Origin: Vicinamibacterales bacterium
GTDB taxonomy: Bacteria > Acidobacteriota > Vicinamibacteria > Vicinamibacterales > UBA2999
DNA: 34,393 nucleotides
Direction of reading: 5' to 3'
Assembly: GCA_036521515.1 (NCBI GenBank)
Contig: DATDHP010000086.1
Span: 1-34,393, forward strand
Of this stretch, positions 6,297 through 28,200 are shown in pieces (the stretch's first letter is position 1; every line of letters begins with the position of its first letter). The notes beneath the pieces were generated by a model. It had not been told where the DNA came from and ran no database searches. It worked only from the letters and a program-made list of their open reading frames with translations. Both the position numbers and the translations under genes were made by a program.

Positions 6297-6342
6297 TCCG
6301 CTCTGCCTTCCGGTGTTGCGCTCTTCGCTCTCACGCGGCCGT

Positions 6343-6413
6343 GGAGACGCGGCGACGCGGAGAAAGCCCGCCCGGATTGCCTCCGCGTCTCCGCGCCTCC
6401 GCGGCTCGTGGCT
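6343..6413. repeat. Imperfect hairpin, GACGCGG-word family (family 2), between mlaF and mlaD
   Basis: CGCGGCCGTGGAGACGCGGCGACGCGGAG faces CCTCCGCGTCTCCGCGCCTCCGCGG. The 20-mer GGAGACGCGGCGACGCGGAG (6352-6371) recurs identically at 12564-12583. Confidence 0.75.
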
Positions 6414-6422
6414 CTCATCTTT

Positions 6423-7163
6423 CTACCCCGCGTTCTCCGACCGCATGAACGCGCGCACCACGTCGTTGTCGCTGCCATCCAGCTCCTCCGCGGTGCCGCG
6501 CGCAATCAGGCGTCCCTCGTGCAGCATGGCCAACTCGTCGCCGACGTGGCGCGCGCTTGGAATGTTGTGGGTCACCACGACGAGCGTCGTCCCCTTCTTC
6601 TTGAGATTGAGGAGCAGCTCGTCGATCTCGTCGGAGGTGATCGGATCGAGTCCCGCCGTGGGCTCGTCCACCAGCAGGATGTCCGGATCGAGCGCCATGG
6701 CGCGCGCGAGTCCCGCCCGCTTGCGCATGCCGCCCGAGAGGTCGGCCGGCATCTTGTCGTAGTCCTTCTCGAGCCCCACGTCGGCCAGTTTCGCCTTCGC
6801 CACCGAACGAATCTTCTCGTCCGTCCAGTCGGTGTGCCGGCGAAGCGGGAATGCCACGTTCTCGCCGACGGTGATCGAGTCGAAGAGCGCCGAGCTCTGG
6901 AACAGGAAGCCCATGCTCTTGCGCACCTCCGCGAGCTCGCGCGCGGGAAGGGACGGCACGTCCTTGCCGCGCACGTAGACGTGGCCGCTGTCCGGCTTCA
7001 ACAGCCCGACAATATGCTTGAGCGTGACGCTCTTGCCTGTGCCGCTGCGGCCGAGCAAACAGAAGCCGGCTCCAGGCTTGATGTCCAGCGTGACGTCGTC
7101 CAGCACTTTGCGGCCGTCGAACGCCTTGGACACGCCGTCGAGCCGGATCGCGAAGTCGTCCAT
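6423..7163 (-). CDS. mlaF: ABC transporter ATP-binding protein MlaF
   Basis: Walker A GRSGTGKS, signature LSGGMRKRAGLARA, Walker B ILLVDEPTAGLD, H-loop VVTHN. Its ATG shares one base with the mlaE TGA (TGATG). Confidence 0.9.
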   Translation of the reverse strand: MDDFAIRLDGVSKAFDGRKVLDDVTLDIKPGAGFCLLGRSGTGKSVTLKHIVGLLKPDSGHVYVRGKDVPSLPARELAEVRKSMGFLFQSSALFDSITVGENVAFPLRRHTDWTDEKIRSVAKAKLADVGLEKDYDKMPADLSGGMRKRAGLARAMALDPDILLVDEPTAGLDPITSDEIDELLLNLKKKGTTLVVVTHNIPSARHVGDELAMLHEGRLIARGTAEELDGSDNDVVRAFMRSENAG

Positions 7164-7945
7164 CACGCGTTCGCCGGGAAGAGAAAGAAGATCAACCGCA
7201 CCAGCACCACGTTGGTCACGATGATCAGAATTGACGAGAGGACGACGCTTTGCGTTGCGGTGCGGCCGACGCCTTCGGTACCCTGCGTCGTCGTGAATCC
7301 GAGATAGCAGCCGATGGTCCCGATGATCAGTCCGAAGACGGCCGTCTTGATCGTGGCCGGGATGAAGTCGGTGAACTGGATCAGGGAGAAGGCGCGATTG
7401 AAATAGAGGTCCCACGACATGCCGCTGACGGTGAACTCGGCGAGGAAGCCGCCGACGATGCCGCAGAAGTCGGTGATCGTGGTGAGCAGCGGCATCGCGA
7501 GGATGCAGGCCAGGATGCGGGTCACCGCCAGGAACTTGAAGGAGTCGACCGCCGCGGCCTCGAGCGCATCGATTTGTTCCGTGACCTTCATCGCGCCCAG
7601 CTCGGCGCCGATGCCGGCCCCGACGCGGCCGGCCACGAGGAGCGCCGTCACCAGCGGACCCGTCTCGCGTATCAGCGCGATGGCGAGACCGGAGGGAATC
7701 ATCGCTTCGGCGCCGAAGCGCTCGAGCGACGCGCGTGTATGCATCGACAACACGATGCCGATGGCGAGGCCGGACGTGGCGACGAGCGGCGTGGACCGCC
7801 AGCCGATCTCGAAGACATGACGCGAGATCTCGCGAAGCTCGTAGGGAGGCAGGAACGCCTCGCGCAATGCCCGGAAGGCGAAGAGGGCCACCTCGCCTAT
7901 CCAGGCCAGCGCGGCGAGGATGGCGCCACCCACCCGCTCCAACAT
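7163..7945 (-). CDS. mlaE: ABC transporter permease MlaE
   Basis: Conserved LIRETGPLVTALLVAGRVGAGIGAELGAMKVTEQIDALE block. ATG at 7945 (MLERVGG...) is preferred over the track's TTG at 7963. Confidence 0.9.
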   Translation of the reverse strand: MLERVGGAILAALAWIGEVALFAFRALREAFLPPYELREISRHVFEIGWRSTPLVATSGLAIGIVLSMHTRASLERFGAEAMIPSGLAIALIRETGPLVTALLVAGRVGAGIGAELGAMKVTEQIDALEAAAVDSFKFLAVTRILACILAMPLLTTITDFCGIVGGFLAEFTVSGMSWDLYFNRAFSLIQFTDFIPATIKTAVFGLIIGTIGCYLGFTTTQGTEGVGRTATQSVVLSSILIIVTNVVLVRLIFFLFPANA

Positions 7946-7958
7946 GGCCCATCTGTTT

Positions 7959-7974
7959 TGCAACGGCCGGGCCA
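7959..7974 (-). promoter_or_regulatory. candidate sigma-54 -24/-12 promoter for mlaEFD
   Basis: Minus strand reads TGGCCC-GGCCG-TTGCA, versus consensus TGGCAC-N5-TTGC(A/T): one mismatch and correct spacing. It lies 14 nt before the mlaE ATG. A sigma-54 activator gene is the next gene upstream. Confidence 0.3.
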
Positions 7975-8025
7975 GGAACCCCGGGCGCCGAACCGGACGA
8001 GCTGGGTCGGCGCCCTCGTCGTTTC

Positions 8026-8208
8026 CCGCTTCTCGGTTCTCCCTTCTCTGGTTCGTGTTCAGGTTCGGTGTTCGGTTCGACGTTCGCGCGTCGCGCCTTG
8101 CGGCGCTCGGGCCGGATGTTCGGGCGCCGAGCGCCGCGAACCTGAACCACGAACCGAACCCTGAACGTGAACACGAACCGAGAAGCGAGAAGGCAGAAGG
8201 GAGAACGG
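8026..8208. repeat. About 180-nt compound inverted repeat built from GGTTC/GAACC and TTCTC/GAGAA 6-7-nt words
   Basis: Perfect sub-pairings: 8028-8037 with 8178-8187; 8038-8048 with 8196-8206; 8051-8061 with 8167-8177; inner stem 8101-8110 with 8127-8136. Word order is partly permuted between the arms. Confidence 0.8.
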
Positions 8209-9740: not shown

Positions 9741-9921
9741 TTTTCCACTCAGTTTAGCGTTGACCGCTCTACGACTCCAAGCGATTGGCACCCAGTTGCG
9801 AGCTCTACCGCGGATCAGCGCAGCCCGTGACCTGGCTCCCGAACCGTTGGTCCTATACTCCGAACCGGAGGATCCAAGCCCGGGACGGTCCGGGGACAGC
9901 ATCCTCCCCACATTGCGTCGA

Positions 9922-11529
9922 ATGGACGTTCTCGATTCCCACATTCGAGTCGACAGCCCGGAGTTCGCCGATAACCACGCGCGGATGACCCGCCTCGTCG
10001 AGGAGCTGAAGGAGCGGCTCAGTGCCGCGCGGCAGGGCGGCGGTCCGCGCGCGCTCCAGCGCCATCGCGATCAGGGGAAGCTGCCGGCACGGGACCGGAT
10101 CGAGCGGCTCCTCGATCAGGGCTCGCCTTTTCTGGAGCTTTCGCCGCTTGCCGCCTGGGAGATGTACGACAACGACGCCCCGGGCGCGGGGCTCGTGACC
10201 GGGCTCGGACGTGTGGCCGGCCGCGAGGTTCTGATCGTCGCCAACGACGCGACCGTCAAGGGAGGGACCTACTACCCGATGACGGTCAAGAAGCACCTGC
10301 GAGCACAGGAGGTGGCGCTCCAGAACCGTCTGCCCTGCGTGTATCTGGTGGACTCCGGCGGCGCCTTCCTGCCTCTGCAGGCCGACGTGTTTCCTGACGG
10401 CCAGCACTTCGGACGTATCTTCTTCAACCAGGCGCGCATGTCAGCCGAGGGGATCGCACAGGTGGCGGTCGTCATGGGCTCCTGCACAGCCGGTGGGGCA
10501 TACGTCCCGGCGATGTCCGACGAAACGATCATCGTCAAGGGGACCGGCACGATTTTCCTGGGCGGGCCGCCGCTCGTGAAGGCCGCGACCGGCGAAGAGG
10601 TCACCGCCGAAGAGTTGGGCGGCGCCGACGTCCATACCCGCATCTCAGGCGTCGCCGACTACATGGCGGAAGACGATGATCACGCGCTTCACCAGGCGCG
10701 GACGGTGATCTCAACCCTCAACAGAGTGAAGACGCTGCCCGGCGACCTCGTCTCGTCCGAAGAGCCGGCGTACGATCCGGCGGAAATTTACGGAATTGTA
10801 AACGCCGATGTCCGCAAGTCGTACGATGTCCGCGAGGTCCTCGCGAGGATCGTCGACGGATCGCGCTTCGACGAGTTCAAGGAGCGGTACGCGCCAACGA
10901 TCGTGACCGGCTTCGCGCGCCTCCACGGTTTTCTCGTCGGCATCGTCGCCAACAACGGGGTGCTGTTCTCTGAGTCGGCGCTCAAAGCGACGCATTTCAT
11001 CGAGCTCTGCAATGTGCGAGGGGTCCCGCTCGTGTTCCTGCAGAACATCACCGGCTTCATGGTCGGGCGTCAGTACGAGCGCGGCGGCATCGCGAAAGAC
11101 GGCGCCAAGATGGTGCACGCGGTGGCCAATTCCGTGGTCCCCAAGTTCACCGTCATCATCGGAGGCTCGTTCGGCGCCGGGAACTACGGCATGTGCGGGC
11201 GCGCGTACGAGCCACGCTTCCTCTGGATGTGGCCCAATGCACGGATCTCGGTCATGGGCGGCGAGCAGGCAGCGGGCGTACTGACCACGGTCAAGCGCGA
11301 TCAGCTGGCGCGCGAGGGCCAACCGCTCAGCGAGGAAGACGAAGAGGCCATTCGCCAGCCGATCCTCGAGAAGTACGAGCGCGAGGGGTCTCCCTACTAT
11401 TCCACTGCCCGCCTGTGGGACGACGGCATTCTCGACCCGGCGCAGACGCGGCACGCCCTGGCCCTCGGCTTGTCGGCCGCCTTCAACGCGCCGATCCTGC
11501 CGCCGAAGTTCGGGGTGTTCAGGATGTAG
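9922..11529 (+). CDS. mccB: methylcrotonyl-CoA carboxylase, carboxyltransferase (beta) subunit
   Basis: 535 aa from the ATG at 9922 ([15 protein letters not shown]...). Typical acyl-CoA carboxyltransferase blocks ([46 protein letters not shown]). Operon context with hydratase, biotin carboxylase and HMG-CoA lyase. Confidence 0.88.
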
Positions 11530-11563
11530 CCACGGAGCGCACCGGGACGACATATGCCACGGA

Positions 11564-11619
11564 GAACACAGCGCGGCCGGAGGCCGCAACCAAAGATGAC
11601 TGTTCGCCGCGCTGTGTTC
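11564..11619. repeat. perfect 14-bp stem hairpin inside the liu operon spacer
   Basis: GAACACAGCGCGGC (11564-11577) pairs with GCCGCGCTGTGTTC (11606-11619), 28-nt loop. Preceded by the direct repeat GCCACGGAG x2. Confidence 0.7.
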
Positions 11620-11637
11620 GAGAACCTGTGCTGGCTA

Positions 11638-11692
11638 GTGACACTAACGCGCTTCTTTGCTGGAAAAACAAACTTCAGCGCGTTAGTGTCAC
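11638..11692. repeat. perfect 15-bp stem hairpin with AT-rich loop inside the liu operon spacer
   Basis: GTGACACTAACGCGC (11638-11652) pairs with GCGCGTTAGTGTCAC (11678-11692). The 25-nt loop is TTCTTTGCTGGAAAAACAAACTTCA. Confidence 0.7.
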
Positions 11693-11746
11693 AAAGACGT
11701 CATGACCACAAGGGCCGCGTCGTGTGTCATGAGTGGCGAGCGTGAC

Positions 11747-12535
11747 ATGGCTTACGATTTCATCCAGGTACGCCGCGAGGGTCCTGTCGAGTACGTCACT
11801 CTCAACCGCCCTGACGTCCGCAATGCTTTCAACGAGCAGGTCATCGACGAGATCACGCGGTGGGCGGCCGCCGTGGCTGCCGATGACCAGGTCCGCGTCG
11901 CCGTGCTGGCCGGCGCGGGCAAGGCGTTCTGCGCGGGCGCCGACCTGACGTGGATGTCGCGCATGGTGTCGTACACCCATGACGAAAACGTGCAGGACGC
12001 CTCGGCGATGGCCAAGATGTATGCGAGCCTCGATCATCTGCCGATCGCGCTCGTGGGCCGTGTCCACGGCGCCGCGCTCGGTGGCGGCGCCGGCCTCGTC
12101 GCCGTCTGCGATATCGTCGTCGCCGGGGAGCAGGCGACGTTCGGGTTCACCGAGGTGAAGGTCGGGATCGTGCCCGCCGTCATCTCGCCGTACGTGCTGA
12201 CGAAGGTGGGCATGTCCGCGACGCGCGAGCTGTTCCTCACCGGAATGCGCTTCGATGCGGCGCGGGCAAAAGAGATTGGATTGGTGCATGCGGTCGCGCA
12301 GGAGGCGCAGCTCGACGCCTGTATTGGCAGGTACGTCTCGGAGCTCCTCACGGCCGCCCCGGGCGCGATTTCCACGGTGAAAGAGCTGCTGCGGAAAGTG
12401 TGGGGCCGGCCAGTGCAGGACACGATGGGGATCACCACCGACACGATCGCCGCCCGGCGCGTGTCGGAGGAAGGCCAGGAGGGCATGAAAGCGTTCCTGG
12501 AGAAGCGGAAACCGAATTGGACGGTCACCCGATGA
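11747..12535 (+). CDS. liuC: enoyl-CoA hydratase family; methylglutaconyl-CoA hydratase by context
   Basis: Crotonase signature (LNRPDVRNAF, AGAGKAFCAGADL, GAALGGGAGL). Located between mccB and mccA. Confidence 0.8.
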   Translation: MAYDFIQVRREGPVEYVTLNRPDVRNAFNEQVIDEITRWAAAVAADDQVRVAVLAGAGKAFCAGADLTWMSRMVSYTHDENVQDASAMAKMYASLDHLPIALVGRVHGAALGGGAGLVAVCDIVVAGEQATFGFTEVKVGIVPAVISPYVLTKVGMSATRELFLTGMRFDAARAKEIGLVHAVAQEAQLDACIGRYVSELLTAAPGAISTVKELLRKVWGRPVQDTMGITTDTIAARRVSEEGQEGMKAFLEKRKPNWTVTR

Positions 12536-12556
12536 TTGACCGTCGGCCACTGAGAC

Positions 12557-12709
12557 GGCCCGCGGAGACGCGGCGACGCGGAGCGAGACTGGTTGTCGGG
12601 TGCCGCTCGCGCGCGCCCGGGATTCAATGGCTGCTGTTTCTCGGTCCGGCTGCAATCGGCCCCCACCACAGAACCACAAAACCTCCGCGTTTCCGCGTCT
12701 CCGCGGCCC
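12557..12709. repeat. Family-2 inverted repeat (27-nt arms, about 100-nt spacer) between liuC and mccA
   Basis: GGCCCGCGGAGACGCGGCGACGCGGAG (12557-12583) faces CTCCGCGTTTCCGCGTCTCCGCGGCCC (12683-12709), about 24/27 complementary. Shares a 20-mer with 6352-6371. Confidence 0.75.
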
Positions 12710-12719
12710 GTGACGGCAG

Positions 12720-14219
12720 ATGTTGCGTCGCATCCTGATCGCCAATCGTGGCGAGATTGCGGTGCGCGTCATTCGTGCGTGCCGGGAGCTCGGAATCGAG
12801 TCCGTGGCCGTCTACTCCGACGCGGATGCGCAGGCGCTGCACGCATCGCTTGCCGACCACGCCGTGCGGATCGGACCCGCGGCGCCGTCGGAAAGCTACC
12901 TGCTCGTCGAAGCGATCCTGGCCGCCGCCCGCGCGACGAAGGCGGACGCCATTCATCCCGGCTACGGTTTCCTGTCGGAGAACGCCGCGTTCGCGCATGC
13001 GTGCGAGCAGGCGGGGATCGTCTTTGTCGGTCCGCCGGGAGACGCCATCGAGCGGATGGGCTCGAAGATTGCGGCGCGCGAGATCGCGCACCGCGCCGGG
13101 GTGCCGGTAGTGCCGGGCTCCATCCCCGCGGATCAGTCCGACGGAGCCATTGCGGGTGCGGCACACGTCCTCGGCTTCCCCGTCCTGCTGAAACCATCGG
13201 CCGGCGGCGGCGGGATCGGGATGAAAGCGGTCCGGGAGGAGGCGGCCTTGCTGCCGTCGATTGCGCAGGCTCGCCGGGAGGCGTCAGCCGCGTTTGGCAA
13301 TGACACGCTCTACGTCGAGCGGCTGGTCGAGCAGCCGCGGCACGTCGAGATTCAGGTGATCGCCGACGCCCACGGACAGGTGCTCCACCTCTTCGAGCGC
13401 GAATGCTCCATCCAGCGGCGCCACCAGAAGATCGTCGAGGAGTCGCCGTCGGTCGCGTTGACGCCGGCACTGCGCGCGCGAATGGGAGAGGCGGCGGTCC
13501 GCGTGGCGCGCGCGGCGGGGTACCGCAATGCGGGGACGATCGAGTTCCTGCTCGATGGCGCCGGTGACGCCGCGAGGTTCTATTTCCTCGAGATGAACAC
13601 GCGCCTGCAGGTCGAGCACCCGGTCACCGAGCAGGTGACCGGCGTCGACCTCGTGCGCGCACAGATAGCCGTGGCGTCCGGCGAGAGGCTGCCGTGGTCA
13701 CAGGCGGAGATCGCGCAGCGCGGCCACGCGATCGAGGTGCGGGTCTACGCGGAGGATCCGTCGCGGAACGACCTGCCGCAGGCCGGCCCCCTGCTCCTCT
13801 ATCGAGAGCCGGTCATGCCGGGCATCCGGGTGGATGCCGGCGTCGTCGAGGGCGGTCAGATCAGCGTTCACTACGACCCGATGATCGCCAAGCTCATCGC
13901 GTCGGGAGACACGCGGGACGCCGCGCGCAGGCGCGCGCTTGCCGCGCTGCGCAGCTATCCCATCCTGGGGATCCGGACGAACGTGCCGTTCCTCATCGCC
14001 CTGCTCGAGCATCCGCGCTTCGTCAGCGGCGAGCTCGACACGCACTTCCTCGACCGCGAAGGGGCGGCGCTTCGGTCTGCGCTCGCGACGGAACCTCCAG
14101 CAGAAGTGCTGGCCATCGCCGATGCCCTTCTGCCGGGCGTAGAGGCCGACCTTCGGGTCGGCCAGGATGCTGGACGTGATGCCGATCCCTGGAGCGCGTT
14201 GCAGAATGTCCGCGTCTAA
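12720..14219 (+). CDS. mccA: methylcrotonyl-CoA carboxylase alpha subunit, biotin-carboxylase part only (499 aa)
   Basis: MLRRILIANRGEIAVRVIRACRELGI start, ATP-grasp blocks (GFPVLLKPSAGGGGIGMK, EMNTRLQVEHPVTE). Ends ...DPWSALQNVRV-TAA, without a biotinyl domain. Confidence 0.9.
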   Translation: MLRRILIANRGEIAVRVIRACRELGIESVAVYSDADAQALHASLADHAVRIGPAAPSESYLLVEAILAAARATKADAIHPGYGFLSENAAFAHACEQAGIVFVGPPGDAIERMGSKIAAREIAHRAGVPVVPGSIPADQSDGAIAGAAHVLGFPVLLKPSAGGGGIGMKAVREEAALLPSIAQARREASAAFGNDTLYVERLVEQPRHVEIQVIADAHGQVLHLFERECSIQRRHQKIVEESPSVALTPALRARMGEAAVRVARAAGYRNAGTIEFLLDGAGDAARFYFLEMNTRLQVEHPVTEQVTGVDLVRAQIAVASGERLPWSQAEIAQRGHAIEVRVYAEDPSRNDLPQAGPLLLYREPVMPGIRVDAGVVEGGQISVHYDPMIAKLIASGDTRDAARRRALAALRSYPILGIRTNVPFLIALLEHPRFVSGELDTHFLDREGAALRSALATEPPAEVLAIADALLPGVEADLRVGQDAGRDADPWSALQNVRV

Positions 14220-14604
14220 CGTCCGGGTCACATCGCTTGGCGGGGGCCGGTACCGCGTGAACGACGGTACGCGGCAATGGCTGGCCCATGGCGTCGCCGC
14301 GGGAGACGCCCGTTGGGTTTTTTTCGATGGGGGCGTGTACCTGATCGACGCGGCGCCTCCTGCGCGTCGGAAGGCGCGTCACAGCCACGATGAGACCGCG
14401 CTCGCCTCGCCCATGCCGGCGACCGTCGTGATGATTAACGTGCAGCCCGGCCAGCGGGTCGCGCAGGGAGATCTGTTGATCATGCTCGAGGCCATGAAGA
14501 TGGAGTTGCCGATCAAGGCGCCCCGGGATGGACGCGTCAACGCGGTCACCTGCCGCCGGGGCGAGCTCGTGCAGCCGGGTGTTCCGCTCCTGGACTTCGA
14601 GTGA
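14206..14604 (+). CDS. biotin carboxyl carrier (BT-linker + biotinyl domain) ORF in the +1 frame; the detached C-terminal part of mccA
   Basis: Biotinylation motif EAMKME in ...GDLLIMLEAMKMELPIKAPRDG.... The ATG at 14206 overlaps the end of the biotin-carboxylase ORF by 14 nt. The start is uncertain (14167 and 14179 are also possible), and the split itself may be a frameshift. Confidence 0.7.
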   Translation: MSASNVRVTSLGGGRYRVNDGTRQWLAHGVAAGDARWVFFDGGVYLIDAAPPARRKARHSHDETALASPMPATVVMINVQPGQRVAQGDLLIMLEAMKMELPIKAPRDGRVNAVTCRRGELVQPGVPLLDFE

Positions 14605-15515
14605 TCGGGCTCCCTGCGCGCGTCCAGATCGTCGAGGTTGGCCCGAGAGACGGGCTTCAGAACGAACCGGCGACGATCCCGGTCGCCGAGAAGATCGCCT
14701 TCGTGAACCGCCTCGCCGAGGCAGGTCACTCCGTGATCGAGGTCGGCGCGTTCGTCAGCCCGAAGTGGGTGCCGCAGATGGCCGGCACGGCGGATGTGTT
14801 TGCAGGCATTGCACGACGGCCCGGCGTGCGCTACACCGCGCTCGTGCCGAACCTCGCCGGACTCGAGCGCGCACAGGCGGCGAACGTCGAGGAGGTGGCC
14901 ATCTTTCCGGCGGCATCCGAAACGTTCAGCCGGCGCAACCTGAACCAGAGCATCGAGGAGGTGCTGGCGGCGGCTCGCACCGTCTGCGATGCGGCGCGTT
15001 CGGCGGGCCAGCGAGTGCGCGGCTACCTGTCCACCTGCTTCGGATGTCCGTTCGAGGGCACGGTGTCGGCCGAAACCGTGTCGGAATTGACCTCACGCCT
15101 CCTCGACATGGGCGCCTACGAGGTCGCGCTGAGCGACACGATCGGCGTGGCCCATCCCGCCCAGGTGCACCAGGTCATCGCAACGGTCACGAGGCGCGCG
15201 CCAATCGACGTGCTGGCGCTTCACCTGCACGATACGCGCGGAACGGCGCTCGTCAACGTTTATGCCGGGCTGGAAGCGGGCGTCACCACCTTCGACACGG
15301 CCGCCGGCGGGCTTGGCGGCTGCCCCTACGCGCCGGGGGCGACTGGAAATCTGGCAACCGAGGACCTCGTCTACATGCTGGACGGGCTCGCCATCGTGAC
15401 AGGCGTGCGCCTCGGTGGCATCATCGAGGCATCACGGAAGATCGAGCCGCACGTCGGCCATCCGCTGCCCTCGCGCTTGTTCCGCGCCGCGCAGGCGGGC
15501 ACGGCGGCTCGTTGA
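14601..15515 (+). CDS. liuE: hydroxymethylglutaryl-CoA lyase
   Basis: VEVGPRDGLQNE signature, FVSPKWVPQMA, and later DTIGVAHP and GLGGCPYAPGATGN blocks. The GTG start overlaps the previous TGA (GTGA). Confidence 0.9.
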   Translation: MIGLPARVQIVEVGPRDGLQNEPATIPVAEKIAFVNRLAEAGHSVIEVGAFVSPKWVPQMAGTADVFAGIARRPGVRYTALVPNLAGLERAQAANVEEVAIFPAASETFSRRNLNQSIEEVLAAARTVCDAARSAGQRVRGYLSTCFGCPFEGTVSAETVSELTSRLLDMGAYEVALSDTIGVAHPAQVHQVIATVTRRAPIDVLALHLHDTRGTALVNVYAGLEAGVTTFDTAAGGLGGCPYAPGATGNLATEDLVYMLDGLAIVTGVRLGGIIEASRKIEPHVGHPLPSRLFRAAQAGTAAR

Positions 15516-19764: not shown

Positions 19765-20376
19765 ATGCCTGGTAAGTCTATGAAGAGAATGCTGCTTACG
19801 GTTGTGCTCGTGCTGGTCCCCATGGCCGCGCTCGCCCAGGACGCCGGTCAGTTCCAGCGAATGTTCGAAGCTGGAAAGTATCAGCAGGTTGTCGAGAGCG
19901 CCTCGTCTGATGCTCCGCCGCCTGTGCTTTACACGGCTGCGCAAAGCCACCAGAAGCTTGGCGCCACCGACCAGGCGCTCGAGACGTACCGGCGGCTGGC
20001 CAATCTGCCCGAGAGCGATCCGTGGCACTTCGTCGGCCTCGCAGCTCAACAATTGCTCGAAGGCCAGACCGACGCGGCGCTCAATTCAGCGCGGCGCGCT
20101 GTCGAGATGGACGGGAACCTGGCGGCAGCCCATTACCAGCTCGGACTGGTCCTCGCGCGTCGACAGGACTGGCGCGATGGCGCCGAAGCCTTCGACCGCG
20201 CGGCGGAGCTCGATCCCGCCAACGCCTACGCGCACTACTACGGCGGCCTCATGCACTACCGTGCGAACCGCCCGGACCGGATGGCCATCCACTTCGAGCA
20301 GTTCCTCAAACTCGCGCCCGAGTCTCCCGAGCGGCCCGAAGTGATGTCGATCATGAAGACCATTCGGGGACGGTAA
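19765..20376 (+). CDS. secreted tetratricopeptide-repeat protein
   Basis: Signal peptide (MKRMLLTVVLVLVPMAALAQD) and 3-4 TPR-like units (AAHYQLGLVLARRQDWRDGAEAFDRAAELDPANAYAHYYGGL). Confidence 0.8.
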   Translation: MPGKSMKRMLLTVVLVLVPMAALAQDAGQFQRMFEAGKYQQVVESASSDAPPPVLYTAAQSHQKLGATDQALETYRRLANLPESDPWHFVGLAAQQLLEGQTDAALNSARRAVEMDGNLAAAHYQLGLVLARRQDWRDGAEAFDRAAELDPANAYAHYYGGLMHYRANRPDRMAIHFEQFLKLAPESPERPEVMSIMKTIRGR

Positions 20377-20578: not shown

Positions 20579-23500
20579 TTAGAACGCCTGCCCAATCCCG
20601 AACGTCCACAGTCCGGAGCTTGGGAACTCGAATCCGGACGAGATCACCCGGCCGTAGTCCAGCCGGAGCACGCCGAAGGGCGTCGTCAGGCGCACCCCGA
20701 ATCCCGCCGACATCGACATGTCGCGGAATGAGACCTTTGGCTCAGGCGACATGCTCCCGAAATCGACAAAGCCCACTCCTCTCACCCAGCGATACACCGG
20801 GAACCGCACTTCCTGATTCAACACCAGCAGCCCCTGGCCGCCAACCGGATCACCGAAGAAGTTCCGTTCGCTGAGGCCGTCCTCCTCGAAGCCGCGGACG
20901 GTGCGCGCGCCGCCGGCAAAGAAGTGGAAGGACGACAGCAGCTCCTGCCCGGCGAGCGGCTTCACGACACCCACCCGGGCCGCCGAGGCGAAGACGATCC
21001 GGCGCCACGGCCGGAAGTAATACCCCTGCGTCAGCGAGCGCACGTACGAAATGTCGGACCCGAGGCCGTCCGCCGCGAGCTCGAGGCTCGTGGACAGCAG
21101 CGAGCCGCGCACGGTGTCGGCGGGATCATCGCGCGTGTCCCATGCGCCACTGCCGGTGAGCCGCGCCGCGGTGATGAGGACGTCGAAGGGGATGTCGGTG
21201 ATGTCAGTCGGCGGCTCCGTATCGAACGTGTGGTTCTGCTCGATCCGGTACGCATACGACACGTTGATGCGCGGCGTCACGCGCCAGCGCTGCTCCCACG
21301 CGGCGCTGCTCGTGTCGGTCTCGAGCGAGTCTGATGCGAAGCTGCGCCGGGCACGCTCGACGACGAACGACGACCCCACGCGCAGTCCGAACATCGTCGG
21401 CGCACTGACGAACACGCGGCCAAGGCGCTCACGCTGCTGGAATCCAGCGGCGCCGCCAAGGGTCATAGCACGGCCGAACAGCGTGCGCCGGGTGACGTCG
21501 GCGGAGAGCCCGGGCACGAGGTCGCGGCCGTTCACGTTGTCCTCCGGCCGTTCCTCCGCCAGCAACAGGCCGTAGCGGGCACGTAGCGCCGGCCACTCCT
21601 CGACCGTCACGCGCATCCGCATCGGGAGCATCCCTTCGGCGGCCGCCGCGTCGGCGAGCGGCTCCGACGATACATCCACGCGGCGGAAGAGCCCGGTGTC
21701 GAATACGCGCGTGCGCGCCTGCAGCCACTCCTCGGGCCGGAGCGGCTGCTTCAGCGTCAGGTCGAGCGCACGTTCGATCACGTCGGTGTCGATGGACTGG
21801 TTTCCGCCGACCGCGATTTCCGCCAATACCTGGCGCGGGCCCTCTGCGACCACGAATGTCACGTCGAGCCGCGGTTCGCCACTCCGGAGCGCCTGGCGTG
21901 CCGTCACGGTCACCGAGGCAAAGCCTTCGCGGCGATACAACCCGACGATGCGCTCGCGCGCGAGCTCGATTGCCGCCGGATCGGCCGCGACACCTTCGGC
22001 GAGCGCCGCCGCCTCGCGCAGCTGATCGATTGTCAGCCGCATGACCCCTTCGAGACCAACTGTACCGATCACGACCGGCTCACCGGGCGTCACCGTGATT
22101 GGGACGACCGCGGCATCCCCGTCGAAGCGTGGCGCGCCAACGGTCACTCGGGCCCCCAGGTACCCTTGCGTCCGTAAGTACTCGGTCAGCTCACGCCCCA
22201 CTCCGCCGGGGTCGGTCGCGGCTCTGTCCGCGAGGCGCCGCAGCGCGACCTCGGCGGAGACCTGCTCACGCAGCGGACCCTCAACCTCCTGGATCTCCAC
22301 CGTGACCGTGGCTGTCCGTGGCCCGGGCACCGCGTCAATCGTGAGCGTCTGCGTCTCCACGGCTTCCATCATGCGGGCGCTCACCTTCGCCTGAAGATAG
22401 CCCTGTTGCGCAAGCGCTCTGCTGACGATCTCCGTCGCTTCCTCGATCAGAAAACTCTCGAACACCGACTCGGCCCATGCCTGGCGCAGCTCCGCCATCA
22501 CCGCGGCCGGAACATCCATGCCCTCGACGACAATCTCGGTCCGCGGCCCTGGTGTCACCGTGTAGGTGAGCGTCACGCCCGCGTCGGCTTCCATGCGGGT
22601 CGCCGTGATACGCGCGGTGAGATATCCCTGCGCCTGGTAAAACTGTTCCACACGATCGCGGTCGCGTTGCCATTCGCCGAAGTCGAAACGATCGCCTTCC
22701 GCGAGAGACAGCAGGTCGCGCACGCGAGCCTCGGGCGCGACGAGAGCTCCCTGGATTGCGACCGTTGTGACGCGCAGGTCCGCGCGCCGTCGTACGGCAG
22801 GCGCCGCTGCCGTGCGTCGGGCGCCGCCGAAGCTCATGTCGTGGCGAAGGCCGAACGAAAACAGGTCGTCGTCATCGGAGACGAGGCGCAACTCGATCTG
22901 GCGGGACGGCAGGTACTCGACGATCCACGTCTGCGCGTCGCCGTCGCGCAGGCTCTGCGAGAGGGTGACGTCCAGGTTGCTCCCGAAGCCTTTCCCGAAC
23001 GTCAATCGGGACGTGGGGTCGAGATCCGCAGTCAGCACAGTGGAGTCGCTCAGGATGCCCGACGTCTGAACACCCCCGATACGAAGCGTGTCGAGGCCGA
23101 TGGCCCGGCCGGCGAAGCCGAGCACGTCGGCGGACAAATTCCCCAGCACCTGCTCACCGATGAACGCCGCGTCGGCCGTGTTCAGGTTCGCGAGACGACG
23201 GCCGGTCATGAGCAGCGCCGTGAGCTCGACCTGACTGAGAACTTCCTCCGACGACGGTGCCTCGAGCGAGACGCTCGGACTCGCCGGAGTTCCGGCAATC
23301 GTGACTTCGATGTCCACTCCGCCGGCACGTGTCGTCAAAGCCAGGTTGAGGTTCGGCTCGATGACGGCCGGGTTCGCAAAGTCAATCGTGCCGGAGGTCA
23401 CGGTGTAGATGTTCCGGCCCACGAACAGTTGCCCGCCTTCCCGCAGGTCGGCGCGACCGGAGAGCGCTGGCGCCGCCGCCGTCCCGATCAACCGAAGGTC

Positions 23501-26500
23501 GGCCCCGAGCTGGAACTGGCCGTAGTTGTTGTCGACGATGATGTCTTCGTCGGTGACGAGACGGACGTCGAGCGCCAGGCGCTCGAGGGCGTCGCCGCTT
23601 TCCACCGCGGTGGCGACCTGCGCCGCGCGAAGGTTGGCGAGCAGACCGGTCACCACGGCGAGCGGCTCTCGATACGCGCCGCGCAGCACGGTGACCGTGC
23701 CCTCGAGGCGGGTATCCGGTAGATCCTGCCCGGGAACGGTCGCCGCCACCACGCGGAGGTCGGCGTCCAGCTCGCTGCGAAGGCCGGCTGGAAACTCGAG
23801 CGCCATCGAACGGATGCCCGTGGCGATCCGCGCACTCACCTGCCCGGCTGACCCGAGCTCTGCGCTTCCCTCTGCGGTGAGGCTGCCGCCATTGATCGAC
23901 CCGGTCATCGACGTCAGGTTGACGGTCGAGCGCGTGAGCACGGCCCGGCCGTTCAGGTCGGACACGATGACGCGCGGAGCGACCAGCCGCATCTCGCCGC
24001 CGGTCACCAGGAGATCGCCATCGACGCGCGGATCGCCGAGCGCGCCGGTAATCGACAGGCGCGGCTGAAGGGACCCGGCCGTGGTAAGGCCTGCGGCCCG
24101 GACGAATGGCGTAGCCATGCGCAAGTCGAGTTCCCCGTTCGCGAGGATCGCGGCCTGAAGATCCTCGAGGCGCACCTGTCCCTGCACGCTCACCCTGGCG
24201 CCCTGGCCGGTCCAGTCCCAGGCCTCGACGCGGGCCAGGCCGTCGCGCGCGACGATGCGCGTGGGCACACGCTGGGTGACTGGAAGGTCCGCGATCCGCA
24301 GGTCGAGCCGATCGAGCTGGAGTTCCCCGCGAACGGCGGTCAGGTCGAGCGACGGCGAACTGGCGGACAACGTGGCATCGACCGACCCGGAGATCTCCTG
24401 GGCCGCGCTGGTGTCCAGGAAGGGTTCGAGCACCATCGCGGTGATGCCCGTGACGCTGGCCTGCAGCGATGCCTCGCCCGGCCCGGCGCCAGGAACCGGA
24501 ATGCCAGCGAGTGACAGCGGCGCTCGCCCCATTCCACTGACCGTGGCCCCCTGGTACACACCGCGGGCCTCGCGCAGGTCGATCCAACCGTCTTCCACGT
24601 GCGTCCGCATGCGCAGATCGGAAATCGTCGGAAGGTCGGTCAGCGTGATCTCGCCTGGACCGACCTCGAGATCGGCCGAGACGAGCGGCGCCTCGAGCGA
24701 ACCCGCCACGCGCGCGAGCAGCGCGACCGGGCCGCTGCCCCCGGCCACCGGCACCGAGGTGATGCCGGTCGCCGCCACGGTCCTCGCGACCTCTCCGATG
24801 TTTCCGCTCATCGTGGCAATGATGCCCGCCGGGAGACTTCCAGCCCCTTGTTCCTGGCTCCGGGTGGCGAACGCGTACATCTCGCCCGAGGCTGAGATAT
24901 GCGTCTCGCCAGCCGCCGCTTCGAGGCGATCGATCGCGAGGCGTTCGCTCCGGTATCTCAGCAGCGCCGGCTCGAGAAGCCGTACCGGCAAGTCGCCGGC
25001 CTTCCCCTCGAATGCGGTGACCTCGAGGTCGGCAGAGCCGGCCCTCCACGTTTCGAGTGGCCCGTCCGCCCGGAGGGCCAGCGTCGTCGTGCCTCCGATT
25101 GCGATGGGAGTCTCGACCATCCCGAGGATCCGCACCAGGTCGATCCGATCGACATGCGCGGTCATCGATGTCATGTAGGGTTTCGAGATGGCGATCCGCG
25201 CGTCCGCCGTGGCGTTGAACTGCGGCACCGTCGCCGCGATATGAGCCAGTTGCGGATCGACCTCCACGGTCGCCATGATGTCGCCGATCGTCACGTTTTC
25301 CCACGCGACCTCACGCGCGGTGACAGCGCCCTCCGCCATCACCTCCGCGGCCCGCCCCGATCCGCGCACCATCGCATCGACGCGTCCGCGCAGCGGCATG
25401 TCGACGGTCGGTGCCAGGGCCCAGTCGGTGAGCGTGGAGTCGAAGGTGTAGCGCTCCGTGCCCGTGTCGAACGTCCCCGAGATCGACACCGGACCGCTGG
25501 CAGGCGGATCCGCCACGCGCACATTGTCGCTGACCGCGCTGAAGGTGACGTGCGTGCCCGAGGACGTGCCCGTGTCGAGCGCACCCGAGATCGAGACGGG
25601 ACCGCTGGCGGGCGGGTTTGCCACCGTCAAATTGTCGCTGGCGGCGGTGAACGTCACGTGCGCGCGCGAGAACGTGCCTTCGATACGCGCCTCCGCACGC
25701 GCGCGGCCGGCCGGAACCGCATCAGCGGGAACGTCCGCGAGTCGAGCGCGGCGCAGCGCATCCGCCACGGCCTGCACATCCGCATCGGGAATCCGCACGT
25801 CGCCGGCAACCGTTGATTGGGGGATCTCGCTGGCAAGCCGACCGGAAAGCGAAAACGCCGTCCTCGCCACGTTACCGGCGCGGTGCTCTCCCTCGAGGCG
25901 CCACTGGCCGCTCGAGAGAGTCAGCCGCGACTCGCCGGGCATCGCAAGGGGAATGAACGGCGTCGGACGATTGCCGAGCTGGATGCGGGCAGCGACGGTG
26001 GCGCGTGCCGTGAGAGGATCGTCGCCCGCCAACGGAACCATTGCCGAGCCGCTGATGCGCCCGCCCTCGATGTCGAACGCCGCCCGCGCGATCGTCAACA
26101 GGTCCGGCGTGACGTTCGCGCTCGCCGCAACATTGACGAGCGCGATCTGCGGCGTGGCAATTCGGGGCGCGTTGATCTCGAGCTCGGCTGTCGGTCCGGC
26201 GAGCGGCCCGGCGACGCGACCGGCGAACGTGAGCGTGCCGCGAGGCGCCTCCGCCTCCGCCATGCCCCACCGCGCAAGACGCGCAACCTCCGCCGCGCCG
26301 TCCACGCGCAGGTCGAGCGCCGGGGCGGCCGCGATGACGGTGAGTGCCCCGTCCACACGGACGCGGCCTTCCTCAGCCTGCACCTCCATGCCCGCGAGGT
26401 GAAGCGTGCGGCCATCGAACCTCGCGCGCCCCGCGAGCGAGGTGACGTGGGTGCCCTGGTCTCCGACGCTCAGAGTCGCCGGTCCCGTCACCGCGATGCG

Positions 26501-27016
26501 GCCATCATCCGCCGCGAGCTCCACCACGGCGCCCGGAATCGTCAACGCGAACCTGGCGACCTCATCCCGCACGTCCACCCTGAGCGGCGACAGCAGAAGA
26601 TGGCCGAATCGAAGCGGCGCGGGCTCGCCTTCGCCAGCGGCGGTCGAGTCAGGCAGGTTGGTCTCCGCTGCCGCGGAGCGGACGATGCGCACGACGCCAT
26701 TGGTGACGGCGACGTCGTCGAGCGCGACGTCACCGAAAAGCGTGCGCCGCGGCACGGTCACCGCGACGTAATCGGCTTCGAAGAGGGGTGGCTGCTTTCC
26801 CTGCGCGGAGATGCGCACGTCCGCGAGACCGATGCGCAGGCCGGCCAGGTTGTAGTCGAGCCGCGATGCATCCACGCGGATCCCGTATTGAGCCTGGACT
26901 GTGGCCACCGCATACCTGAGGACGCGGGCGCGGACGAACGGGGCATGCACGAGGAGGGTGGCCGCTGCGACCAGCAGCACTGCAGCCACGAGGAACAACG
27001 CGAGCCGGCGCCTCAT
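20579..27016 (-). CDS. 2145-aa fusion: TamB-like (signal-anchor + beta-rich repeat region + DUF490-like end) joined to POTRA repeats and an Omp85/TamA-BamA-type barrel
   Basis: One uninterrupted frame. aa 1-1397 (nt 22826-27016) are TamB-like and end WIVEYLPSRQIELRLVSDDDDLFSFGLRHDMSFGG. aa about 1412-1808 (21593-22783) are POTRA-like modules. aa about 1809-2145 (20582-21592) are a barrel ending GLWTFGIGQAF. Confidence 0.85.
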   Translation of the reverse strand: MRRRLALFLVAAVLLVAAATLLVHAPFVRARVLRYAVATVQAQYGIRVDASRLDYNLAGLRIGLADVRISAQGKQPPLFEADYVAVTVPRRTLFGDVALDDVAVTNGVVRIVRSAAAETNLPDSTAAGEGEPAPLRFGHLLLSPLRVDVRDEVARFALTIPGAVVELAADDGRIAVTGPATLSVGDQGTHVTSLAGRARFDGRTLHLAGMEVQAEEGRVRVDGALTVIAAAPALDLRVDGAAEVARLARWGMAEAEAPRGTLTFAGRVAGPLAGPTAELEINAPRIATPQIALVNVAASANVTPDLLTIARAAFDIEGGRISGSAMVPLAGDDPLTARATVAARIQLGNRPTPFIPLAMPGESRLTLSSGQWRLEGEHRAGNVARTAFSLSGRLASEIPQSTVAGDVRIPDADVQAVADALRRARLADVPADAVPAGRARAEARIEGTFSRAHVTFTAASDNLTVANPPASGPVSISGALDTGTSSGTHVTFSAVSDNVRVADPPASGPVSISGTFDTGTERYTFDSTLTDWALAPTVDMPLRGRVDAMVRGSGRAAEVMAEGAVTAREVAWENVTIGDIMATVEVDPQLAHIAATVPQFNATADARIAISKPYMTSMTAHVDRIDLVRILGMVETPIAIGGTTTLALRADGPLETWRAGSADLEVTAFEGKAGDLPVRLLEPALLRYRSERLAIDRLEAAAGETHISASGEMYAFATRSQEQGAGSLPAGIIATMSGNIGEVARTVAATGITSVPVAGGSGPVALLARVAGSLEAPLVSADLEVGPGEITLTDLPTISDLRMRTHVEDGWIDLREARGVYQGATVSGMGRAPLSLAGIPVPGAGPGEASLQASVTGITAMVLEPFLDTSAAQEISGSVDATLSASSPSLDLTAVRGELQLDRLDLRIADLPVTQRVPTRIVARDGLARVEAWDWTGQGARVSVQGQVRLEDLQAAILANGELDLRMATPFVRAAGLTTAGSLQPRLSITGALGDPRVDGDLLVTGGEMRLVAPRVIVSDLNGRAVLTRSTVNLTSMTGSINGGSLTAEGSAELGSAGQVSARIATGIRSMALEFPAGLRSELDADLRVVAATVPGQDLPDTRLEGTVTVLRGAYREPLAVVTGLLANLRAAQVATAVESGDALERLALDVRLVTDEDIIVDNNYGQFQLGADLRLIGTAAAPALSGRADLREGGQLFVGRNIYTVTSGTIDFANPAVIEPNLNLALTTRAGGVDIEVTIAGTPASPSVSLEAPSSEEVLSQVELTALLMTGRRLANLNTADAAFIGEQVLGNLSADVLGFAGRAIGLDTLRIGGVQTSGILSDSTVLTADLDPTSRLTFGKGFGSNLDVTLSQSLRDGDAQTWIVEYLPSRQIELRLVSDDDDLFSFGLRHDMSFGGARRTAAAPAVRRRADLRVTTVAIQGALVAPEARVRDLLSLAEGDRFDFGEWQRDRDRVEQFYQAQGYLTARITATRMEADAGVTLTYTVTPGPRTEIVVEGMDVPAAVMAELRQAWAESVFESFLIEEATEIVSRALAQQGYLQAKVSARMMEAVETQTLTIDAVPGPRTATVTVEIQEVEGPLREQVSAEVALRRLADRAATDPGGVGRELTEYLRTQGYLGARVTVGAPRFDGDAAVVPITVTPGEPVVIGTVGLEGVMRLTIDQLREAAALAEGVAADPAAIELARERIVGLYRREGFASVTVTARQALRSGEPRLDVTFVVAEGPRQVLAEIAVGGNQSIDTDVIERALDLTLKQPLRPEEWLQARTRVFDTGLFRRVDVSSEPLADAAAAEGMLPMRMRVTVEEWPALRARYGLLLAEERPEDNVNGRDLVPGLSADVTRRTLFGRAMTLGGAAGFQQRERLGRVFVSAPTMFGLRVGSSFVVERARRSFASDSLETDTSSAAWEQRWRVTPRINVSYAYRIEQNHTFDTEPPTDITDIPFDVLITAARLTGSGAWDTRDDPADTVRGSLLSTSLELAADGLGSDISYVRSLTQGYYFRPWRRIVFASAARVGVVKPLAGQELLSSFHFFAGGARTVRGFEEDGLSERNFFGDPVGGQGLLVLNQEVRFPVYRWVRGVGFVDFGSMSPEPKVSFRDMSMSAGFGVRLTTPFGVLRLDYGRVISSGFEFPSSGLWTFGIGQAF

Positions 27017-27141
27017 CCGGCCTTTATCGTACGCCCGGTCTCTCCTCCCGGCTAAGTCAGACCCGGGTCAGGCGGCTGCAGGTGCAAATAACCGCACCGA
27101 CGTGCTACTTTAATGTCGTCGTCGCCGGCTTGCACACGCTA

Positions 27142-28200
27142 ATGCCCGTACAACCGCTCGACTTGACGCTCGAGCTTGCACCCAAGGCGCGGTTCGACGT
27201 TGTCGAGCTTCGCTCGCATTTCGCGGCCGAACACGAGGCCCTCGCCGCGTTTCCTCACTGTCTTTACTGGTCGTCGCACACCACGGCAGGCTTTCTCGAC
27301 CGCAGCCTCTCCGCGCGATTGAGCGCCGCGCGCGTTCCGACGTACGTCGAGGCGTTCAGAGCACTGTTTCCCGAGGGCGCCGGATACGAGCACGACCGTC
27401 TCGAGCGCCGGGAGGATCTCGATCCCACACAGCGCGCGGTCGAGCCGAGGAACGCGGATTCACACCTGGCGTTCATTGCCAGCGGGTTGCGGCCGTGCGT
27501 GACGCACCCGAATCGGCCGGGTGAAACGGTCTGCTTCGTGGACCTCGACGGGATAGTGGCCGGTCGCCCGCGGCGCCGGCGCACCCGGCTGATTGGCTTT
27601 CATCAGGAGCAGGTCGTCCGCAAGACGCGCATCCAAGTGCCGGTCTCCGCGCACCCGATTGACTCGATCAACCTGAAGGACCCGCGGCTCGGCATTTGCG
27701 ACCAGCTCGTTGAATTCGTTGTGCGCGCGGGTGTCGCCAAGGGCCGCCTGCGCATCGTTCTCGACCCGTCCGAGCGTCATTCCGCGCTGACCGTCAACGA
27801 GTACGAAACGCTGCTGATGAATCACGACCTCGCCGAAGTGCTCCGCAATCCGCTGCGCTTCGTGGCTGAGAAGGGCCTGCACGCACTGGCCAACCCGCGT
27901 GCCGTCCCGGCCAAGACGCTGGGCTACGCGAAGTACGACTTCGTGCGAATCCTGAACCAGAGCCTCGACATGTTCGGCCTTCGCGGATCGCTCGTCGAGA
28001 AGCTGCTGGCGCGGACGCTCGCCGTGCCGGCCGCGCGCTTCTTCCGCATGCGCCGTTCGGTGAGCCTGCTCGTCGCGGACCGCGAGGACGGGACGTACGG
28101 GATCATCGAGGGAACCTACCAAAGTCCCATCCTGGTCCAGTGGCAGCGCGCGCCGCGCCAGACGCGCGTCCTGGATGTGACCCTGACAGAGTTGCAGTAG
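27142..28200 (+). CDS. tandem YjbQ/UPF0047-like protein
   Basis: First half: SSHTTAGFLD, LFPEGAGYEHD, NADSHLAFIASGL. Second half: RHSALTVNEYE, GTYQSPILVQW. These mirror the HTSASL...NE / YEHD / SHIKSSLLG / GTWQ motifs of YjbQ. ATG at 27142 is preferred. Confidence 0.55.
   Translation: MPVQPLDLTLELAPKARFDVVELRSHFAAEHEALAAFPHCLYWSSHTTAGFLDRSLSARLSAARVPTYVEAFRALFPEGAGYEHDRLERREDLDPTQRAVEPRNADSHLAFIASGLRPCVTHPNRPGETVCFVDLDGIVAGRPRRRRTRLIGFHQEQVVRKTRIQVPVSAHPIDSINLKDPRLGICDQLVEFVVRAGVAKGRLRIVLDPSERHSALTVNEYETLLMNHDLAEVLRNPLRFVAEKGLHALANPRAVPAKTLGYAKYDFVRILNQSLDMFGLRGSLVEKLLARTLAVPAARFFRMRRSVSLLVADREDGTYGIIEGTYQSPILVQWQRAPRQTRVLDVTLTELQ

Follow-up and report, generated by a model that had tools for sequence, protein, structure and literature searches.

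The 34,393-nt window analysed here, positions 1 to 34,393 of contig DATDHP010000086.1 (assembly GCA_036521515.1, Vicinamibacterales bacterium, Acidobacteriota), carries on its minus strand a single gene that joins a TamB-like protein to an outer-membrane protein of the Omp85 superfamily. According to the list of open reading frames (ORFs) and the translation, the gene is one uninterrupted frame with an ATG start, encoding 2145 aa, and its third-position GC content (0.83) is like that of the neighbouring genes. From the N- to the C-terminus, the protein consists of a membrane anchor, a TamB-type β-sheet of ~1370 aa, a disordered linker of 17 aa, five POTRA domains and a 16-strand Omp85 barrel (Table 1). 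This is a genuine end-to-end fusion, in which a complete TamB-like protein is followed by a POTRA + Omp85 protein. A preliminary description of the stretch had already read it as a single 6.4-kb frame in which an inner-membrane-type signal-anchor, a TamB-like region closing with a DUF490-like end, POTRA modules and an Omp85 barrel ending in GIGQAF succeed one another, with the junction at nt 22780-22830. The frame, the anchor, the fusion order and the position of the junction were all borne out, the three Pfam domains concerned (PF04357, PF07244 and PF01103) scored above their cut-offs, and every recurring motif quoted was present in the translation; the estimate of at least four POTRAs needs correcting, the count being five.

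Table 1. Features of the fused gene and of its surroundings, with positions in the window
Feature	Position (nt)	Strand	Basis or remark
Whole fused gene	20579..27016	-	2145 codons + stop; full-length homologues 2050-2400 aa, 30-68% identity
N-terminal signal-anchor transmembrane helix, residues 2-23	26948..27013	-	Sole hydrophobic segment; AlphaFold2 helix 2-23
TamB-like periplasm-spanning 'beta-taco' region, residues 24-1396	22829..26947	-	AlphaFold2, Foldseek, profile matches
DUF490/TamB Pfam domain PF04357, residues 1037-1383	22868..23908	-	95.5 bits vs cut-off 22.4
Last TamB strand, internal β-signal-like motif, residues 1386-1396	22829..22861	-	Family conservation; top inter-domain couplings
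Linker GGARRTAAAPAVRRRAD, residues 1397-1413	22778..22828	-	pLDDT < 50
Five POTRA domains, residues 1414-1807	21596..22777	-	AlphaFold2; Pfam in 4 stretches; TIGR03303, 88 bits over the POTRA region
16-strand Omp85 barrel, residues 1808-2145	20582..21595	-	PF01103 130 bits vs cut-off 24, residues 1846-2145; AlphaFold2 barrel 1811-2145
Barrel strand β1, residues 1811-1822	21551-21586	-	AlphaFold2
Motif RTVRGF in the long loop 6, residues 2038-2043	20888-20905	-	Motif position
Secreted TPR protein, ~200 aa, tail-to-tail with the fused gene	19765..20376	+	Signal peptide ending AALA-QD; no lipobox
MlaE permease	7163-7963	-	Mla/MCE cluster
ABC ATPase	inside ORF 6423-8174		Mla/MCE cluster
Unusually long MlaD-like protein, 479 aa	4857-6296	-	Mla/MCE cluster

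The two halves of the protein and their junction

The chain was modelled with AlphaFold2 in two jobs on family alignments (one of 35 rows), covering residues 1-1050 and 1000-2145. The N-terminal model, with a mean predicted local distance difference test score (pLDDT) of 86, opens with the anchor helix, continues with a second helix and then runs through about 65 β strands; in the family consensus, a conserved H.P.VR..VL motif stands directly after the transmembrane helix. A scan of the whole 2145-aa chain found a hydrophobic, transmembrane-like segment only at residues 4-24, and no hydrophobic or signal-peptide-like segment near the junction or ahead of POTRA1, which leaves the Omp85 part without a separate export signal. 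When the N-terminal model was compared with the PDB using Foldseek, the sole significant matches were ApoB100 and the bridge-like lipid transfer protein LPD-3, both long lipid-binding β-sheets, and the N-terminal 1060 aa yielded weak Pfam matches to DUF748, AsmA and YhdP. The PF04357 match spans profile positions 3-368 of 381, and the 13 positions left unmatched correspond to the last strand, residues 1384-1396; TamB homology therefore extends essentially to F1396. With the family profile, E. coli TamB (9xdc_B) scores 78.5 bits over its residues 730-1195, and a pairwise phmmer search of the PDB with the C-terminal 412 aa of the TamB part gave no match. In the second model, residues 1000-1396 add further β-sheet with few helices and final short strands ending at F1396. 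The TamB-like gene segment also includes a 108-bp tandem duplication (window 25457-25678, minus strand; residues 453-524; 2.1 copies, 82% identical), so that a 36-aa segment of the protein, HVTF(T/S)A.SDN...PPASGPVSISG, is repeated. The duplication maps to the one long insert that the N-terminal model predicts with low confidence (residues 467-505) and looks like a recent, lineage-specific loop expansion in the TamB sheet.

The TamB part ends exactly at a TamB-like terminal strand, ...FRHDMSF-GG. Among 80 homologues, the consensus of this strand is R-S-Y-E-F-R-H-D-V-S-F-G-G, with R conserved in 90%, H in 89%, F in 76% and G in 94%; the strand alternates between hydrophobic and polar positions up to a closing aromatic residue and thus looks like the β-signal of an outer-membrane protein, though an internal one. 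Unlike in TamB proper, where such a strand is chain-terminal, it is followed here by GG, the linker and 750 more residues. In the same 80 homologues, the linker measures 12-35 aa, is rich in Arg, Ala, Pro, Ser and Thr, varies in both length and sequence and contains no conserved motif, so that the family has kept the strand and not the linker; in the model of the present protein, the disordered stretch covers residues 1400-1413. The join is end to end, with complete TamB, GG and ~15 variable residues leading into a mature Omp85 that starts with POTRA1.

The model of residues 1000-2145 (mean pLDDT 79, predicted template modelling score (pTM) 0.51) contains five POTRA units of the β-α-α-β-β type, at approximately residues 1415-1488, 1492-1563, 1570-1643, 1649-1724 and 1728-1807, and Pfam recognises POTRA PF07244 at 103 bits in four stretches starting from residue 1416. 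The hallmarks of the Omp85 superfamily are all present, namely the POTRAs, the 16-strand barrel, the RTVRGF motif in loop 6 and the C-terminal aromatic residue, which is the terminal F of the β-signal ...GIGQAF and is 96% conserved across the family. Foldseek aligned the C-terminal model best with full-length E. coli BamA (~820 columns, E about 1e-37) and over ~595 columns with TamA, the BamA and TamA matches together spanning E-values from 1e-30 to 1e-37. In pairwise searches of the PDB, the barrel alone found only TamA barrels and no BamA at E<=1e-3. Five is the POTRA number of BamA, TamA having three, and the Omp85 half therefore combines a BamA-like number of POTRAs with a TamA-like barrel. 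The whole protein is similarly composite with respect to the NCBIfam models: the best match is the BamA model TIGR03303 (188 bits vs a cut-off of 297), with the TamA model NF047950 at 90 bits (cut-off 625) and the TamB model NF047952 at 29.7 bits (cut-off 825), so the fused protein is homologous to all three and an equivalog of none. Searched against the PDB, the family profile finds BamA as well as both TamA and TamB of the E. coli entry 9xdc.

Distribution of the fusion

A word-indexed protein search returned 196 relatives, with at least 100 clusters of 2050-2400 aa sharing the architecture, down to ~30% identity; almost all of the relatives listed have lengths in that range, the same Pfam architecture and identities of 30-68%. 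Those from Acidobacteria or Vicinamibacterales metagenome-assembled genomes (MAGs), such as MBI2186501.1, MEQ1760228.1 and MEZ5291758.1, bear the automatic NCBI name 'translocation/assembly module TamB domain-containing protein', and relatives in IMG of the Joint Genome Institute (JGI) are automatically called 'BamA / TamB'. The Omp85 half on its own was searched against 1.84 billion representatives clustered at 50% identity and gave 1014 matches below 1e-30. More than half of the 150 best representatives (85) are full-length fusions of at least 1900 aa in which the match lies at the C-terminal end. The shorter ones start in the middle of a domain, with neither a hydrophobic N-terminus nor a signal peptide, and are therefore contig-truncated fragments; as candidates for stand-alone relatives of the Omp85 half, they were rejected on the same grounds.

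A scan of GTDB with one genome per species detected 467 pattern-matched stretches that encode relatives, corresponding to ~230-467 genes, since two of the patterns lie within one gene. The best 80 of these stretches are all fused and come from Acidobacteriota/Vicinamibacterales MAGs (a few labels being evidently wrong), several of them complete chromosomes of 4-6 Mb. The fused form is thus the standard one across the recovered genomes labelled Acidobacteriota, Vicinamibacterales or Vicinamibacteria. Six loci (L008, L029, L042, L050, L059 and L069) carry the gene at 37-56% identity under the labels Acidimicrobiia, Bifidobacteriaceae, Dehalococcoidia or Solibacteraceae; mislabelling or contamination of the bins is the probable cause.

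In 81 of 82 related loci, which originate from many studies and sequencing platforms, the junction is crossed by one in-frame segment of the tblastn alignment; the exception, L041, is a long-read MAG with a frame change. Three seemingly unfused entries (P0076, P0077 and P0082) proved to be ORFs split by frameshifts at arbitrary places, with the continuation directly after, and were discarded as such. Copies of the fused gene in L041, L083, L084 and the P0077 contig are likewise broken by frame changes at arbitrary positions. The broken copies come from MAGs with record names suggesting long-read assembly and from two JGI contigs, and gene callers report 'TamB' and 'Omp85' separately for them, which could mislead surveys of architecture. 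The conservation of the joined frame across these collections indicates that the fusion is real and under selection.

A full-text literature search found no paper that mentions a fusion of TamB with Omp85, BamA or TamA, nor, outside PMC4494059, one that mentions TamB in Acidobacteriota. The architecture thus appears to be already in the databases yet undescribed in the searchable literature. The preliminary description had stated that no characterised example was known, which agrees with the literature; as to rarity, the fusion is the standard form across a whole class within the Acidobacteria and is machine-annotated in both NCBI and IMG. That description was largely right, overstating its case on uniqueness and on a supposed paradox of membrane insertion, discussed below.

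Coupling between the TamB strand and the barrel, and a proposed covalent bridge

Mean-field direct coupling analysis (DCA) was applied to 302 family sequences (effective number, Neff, 209), using as columns the last 100 TamB residues together with the end of POTRA5 and the barrel. Most of the top pairs lie within the barrel, and those that were checked sit on strands adjacent in the model, providing a positive control. The two strongest TamB-to-barrel couplings, F1388-E1821 and M1394-A1813, occupy ranks 11-12 of 102,831 pairs and exceed the 36,057-pair inter-domain block by >7 standard deviations. Both connect the last TamB strand with β1 of the barrel, and the sum i+j of the two pairs is nearly constant, an indication of antiparallel pairing; the best 9-residue antiparallel diagonal of the inter-domain block lies at the same site (z = 5.4). 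When the TamB and barrel halves were re-paired four times, the inter-domain maximum reached 0.89-1.22, compared with the observed 1.47 and 1.42, and the scores of the two pairs dropped below zero. Other inter-domain pairs (for example, 312-320 with 938-958) remained within the permutation maxima and were not used. The couplings point to pairing of the terminal TamB strand with Omp85 β1, that is, to a hybrid-barrel contact of the type known from TAM (short for translocation and assembly module). In the cryo-electron microscopy structure of E. coli TamA-TamB, the C-terminal β-signal strand of TamB binds β1 of TamA and six TamB strands lie in the membrane, forming a 'hybrid barrel' (PMC13119328); for Borrelia BamA-TamB, the same strand contact has been modelled, with AlphaFold3 predicting completion of the barrel (PMC13382580). 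The view taken in the preliminary description, that TamB docks on the TamA POTRAs, is accordingly outdated.

With moderate confidence, we read the protein as a covalent, single-chain TAM, a lipid or outer-membrane protein bridge held in the outer membrane by its own Omp85. The N-terminal helix would be kept in the inner membrane as an uncleaved signal-anchor, while Sec would export the other ~2100 residues, and the TamB-like β-sheet groove would span the periplasm. The C-terminal barrel would be recognised via its terminal β-signal, ...GIGQAF, for outer-membrane insertion, presumably carried out by the insertase of the β-barrel assembly machinery (BAM). The internal β-signal, Y-x-F-R-H-D-V-S-F, would then pair in antiparallel orientation with β1 of, most simply, the protein's own barrel, as in E. 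coli TamA-TamB, which would anchor the groove's end in the outer membrane. The 12-35-aa linker would leave the periplasmic end of the strand, beside the POTRA5-β1 junction, and reach POTRA1, so that the five POTRAs would curl into a closed loop under the barrel. By homology, its function would be the one proposed for TAM, with phospholipid moving through the groove to the outer membrane from the inner one and, possibly, some help in the assembly of certain outer-membrane proteins. That a single chain reaches both membranes, as suggested in the preliminary description, is a reasonable inference from this layout. The puzzle raised there, how a barrel could be inserted while the N-terminus stays in the inner membrane, is no paradox, because in ordinary TamB, too, an anchor in the inner membrane goes together with C-terminal strands embedded in the outer one.

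Several points weigh against this reading. Expression of the gene and intactness of its product are presumed here, and a function in phospholipid transport is one that we infer from E. coli TAM only. The contact evidence consists of two strong pairs at a modest Neff, DCA is blind to whether a contact is intra- or intermolecular, and the permutation is a lenient null because it removes the phylogenetic signal. Between the TamB sheet and the POTRAs, DCA yielded scattered pairs within noise and no interpretable interface. The pTM of the AlphaFold2 models is only 0.51-0.54, so that neither the cis hybrid barrel nor the closed POTRA loop is directly visible in them. Linkers of 12-17 aa would have to span the distance from the barrel rim to POTRA1 of a five-POTRA arm. 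Finally, a second Omp85 was sought only in the ±10 kb flanks of the 82 loci, and another BamA that would insert the barrel is a presumption.

The properties of the linker bear on whether the chain stays whole. Being disordered (pLDDT < 50) and rich in Arg, Ala and Pro, it would be accessible to proteases, and export as a fusion is needed whatever follows, since the Omp85 part lacks its own signal peptide. The protein might hence be a polyprotein that is exported as one chain and then cut in the linker to give an ordinary two-subunit complex of TamB and Omp85. We regard this as unlikely: the linker shows no conserved cleavage motif and drifts freely in length and sequence among the 80 homologues, and no dedicated protease is conserved nearby, an M28 peptidase being syntenic in merely 20 of the 82 loci. 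On that reading, the fusion would merely give co-export, a 1:1 stoichiometry and a substitute for the Omp85 signal peptide.

Equally improbable, in our estimate, is pairing in trans, in which the TamB strand would dock on β1 of another copy, giving a domain-swapped dimer or chain, or on that of a separate BamA. DCA cannot separate cis from trans, and in cis the short linker may come under strain, since it has to reach POTRA1, which of all the POTRAs lies farthest from the barrel. A cis contact is nevertheless the simplest reading and is favoured by the covalent 1:1 stoichiometry; if the strand docked on a different, unfused BamA, no such coupling would arise, because the coupled positions belong to one gene family.

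Slightly less probable again is that the fused Omp85 serves as the general, possibly the only, BamA of the cell, tethered to the inner membrane via TamB as a covalent counterpart of a Borrelia-like BAM-TAM hybrid. The five POTRAs, full-length BamA as the best structural match and the top rank of TIGR03303 among NCBIfam models speak for such a role, many phyla pair TamB with a sole BamA (PMC4494059), and a hidden Markov model (HMM) of the family barrel region detected no second Omp85 within 10 kb in any of the 82 loci. The TIGR03303 score, however, is well under the cut-off, the barrel on its own retrieves TamA barrels and not BamA, Acidobacteria have been reported to possess, alongside a canonical BamA, a TamA-like second copy that is linked to TamB (PMC4494059), and a β1 occupied by the TamB strand would be hard to square with general substrate turnover. 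The bolder proposition, that the TamB-fused Omp85 acts as the main or sole BamA of Vicinamibacteria, so that one covalent trans-envelope machine inserts proteins and delivers lipid while its POTRA arm is ring-closed by its own TamB strand, is similarly doubtful; if it were true, outer-membrane biogenesis in these organisms would be organised unlike that of any studied bacterium.

The chance that a lost stop codon or a frameshift, introduced by sequencing or assembly, joined two genes is negligible: although the observation started from a single window and a few related MAGs, L041 among them, do show frameshifts, this explanation is refuted by the homologue lengths, the 50%-identity representatives, the GTDB loci and the in-frame junctions of 81 independent loci, the breaks that exist lie at arbitrary positions away from the junction (L041 being the sole exception) and the Omp85 part lacks a signal peptide.

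Relation to known systems, neighbouring genes and implications

The covalent single-chain TAM proposed here shares with the TAM of E. coli and other proteobacteria the signal-anchor, the β-sheet groove, DUF490 and an Omp85 partner composed of POTRAs and a 16-strand barrel, the barrel being closest to TamA barrels by pairwise search. The contact between the terminal TamB strand and β1, solved in E. coli (PMC13119328), is supported by coevolution in the present family. The differences concern the organisation: one polypeptide instead of two subunits, TamB before Omp85 instead of the tamA-tamB operon order, five POTRAs instead of three, a β-signal that is internal and followed by GG and the linker, an Omp85 part without a signal peptide, and scores far under the NCBIfam equivalog cut-offs for TamA and TamB. 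The domain order is shared with BamA-TamB pairs of phyla that lack TamA, for example the tamB-bamA operon of Borrelia burgdorferi (BB0794/BB0795), which encodes TamB and then a BamA-type Omp85 with five POTRAs, the DUF490 of TamB binding BamA (PMC5582053, PMC11361582, PMC13382580). There, however, the proteins are separate, and BamA is the sole general insertase and has a signal peptide of its own, whereas here the two are covalently joined.

Heinz et al. (2015) described operons with tamB followed by bamA, for example in spirochaetes, the order BamA-TamB in Acidobacteria and, in that phylum, a second BamA-like Omp85 dedicated to TamB, which they proposed as the origin of TamA (PMC4494059). 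The latter system (PMC4494059) comes from the same phylum as the present fusion and consists of two genes, in the order BamA-TamB, seven POTRAs being present in some cases. In the fusion, the order is reversed, the genes are joined, the POTRA number is BamA-like and the barrel TamA-like. Vicinamibacteria were reportedly absent from that survey. The components are thus separate polypeptides in proteobacterial TAM, in BamA-TamB pairs and in the second-BamA systems of Acidobacteria, and joined here. Starting from a tamB-bamA operon, loss of the stop codon and of the signal peptide would yield exactly this product. The argument in the preliminary description that loss of a stop codon cannot explain the fusion is therefore valid for the tamA-tamB order and fails for the tamB-bamA order, which is documented (PMC4494059).

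Single chains that may connect the two membranes have been put forward elsewhere. The transenvelope MlaD of diderm Firmicutes is one polypeptide proposed to extend between the two membranes for lipid traffic (PMC13018214), and an LptF/G-LptA-LptD-like fusion of Thermotoga has been proposed as a single-chain trans-envelope lipid system (PMC10160955); their folds (MCE/MlaD and Lpt) are unrelated to that of the present protein, and neither has an Omp85 barrel. In PlpD-type proteins, as here, a large functional domain is fused N-terminally to the POTRA of an Omp85 (PMC11116518). In those patatin-POTRA-barrel proteins the passenger is a lipase that is secreted; they have a single POTRA and a cleavable signal peptide and form no bridge anchored in the inner membrane.

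Among the neighbouring genes, the convergent TPR gene is the most constant, lying within -3 to 600 bp of the stop of the fused gene in 63 of the 82 loci, with the other neighbours being much less conserved. Its product has only generic TPR matches and reaches 18 bits with the BamD model; in view of this score and of the missing lipobox, its identification as BamD is unsupported. The TPR protein may be a partner of the fused protein. On the other side, a divergent gene for a 372-aa protein (window 27082-28200, plus strand), with no Pfam or NCBIfam match, shows synteny with the fused gene in 25 of the 82 loci, and an unannotated gene of similar size occupies the same place in L001, L083 and L084. 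Farther away, the window contains an Mla/MCE-type cluster for a lipid ATP-binding cassette (ABC) transporter (4857-7963, minus strand), including a long MlaD-like protein of a kind proposed as a trans-envelope bridge in other diderms (PMC13018214). A catabolic cluster of the leucine/isovalerate type (9760-15515, plus strand) encodes a carboxyltransferase, an enoyl-CoA hydratase, a biotin carboxylase and an HMG-CoA-lyase-like protein; parts of it are also found near the fused gene in L001 and L084, and this looks like ordinary synteny.

How phospholipids arrive at the outer membrane of bacteria is a current question in which TamB-family bridges and their Omp85 anchors are central. A natural, ancient and class-wide fusion is an independent line of 'Rosetta-stone' evidence that TamB and Omp85 associate 1:1 and can work without coming apart. 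For structural and biochemical studies, the fused gene supplies a single-chain construct ready-made, from a family deep enough for inter-subunit contacts to be approached by coevolution. The outer-membrane machinery of the abundant soil Acidobacteria may be miscounted, because pipelines based on KEGG Orthology (KO) or HMMs name the protein 'BamA/TamB' or 'TamB domain-containing'. Finally, the fusion is a clue to the rise of TamA-type partners from BamA in or near Acidobacteria.

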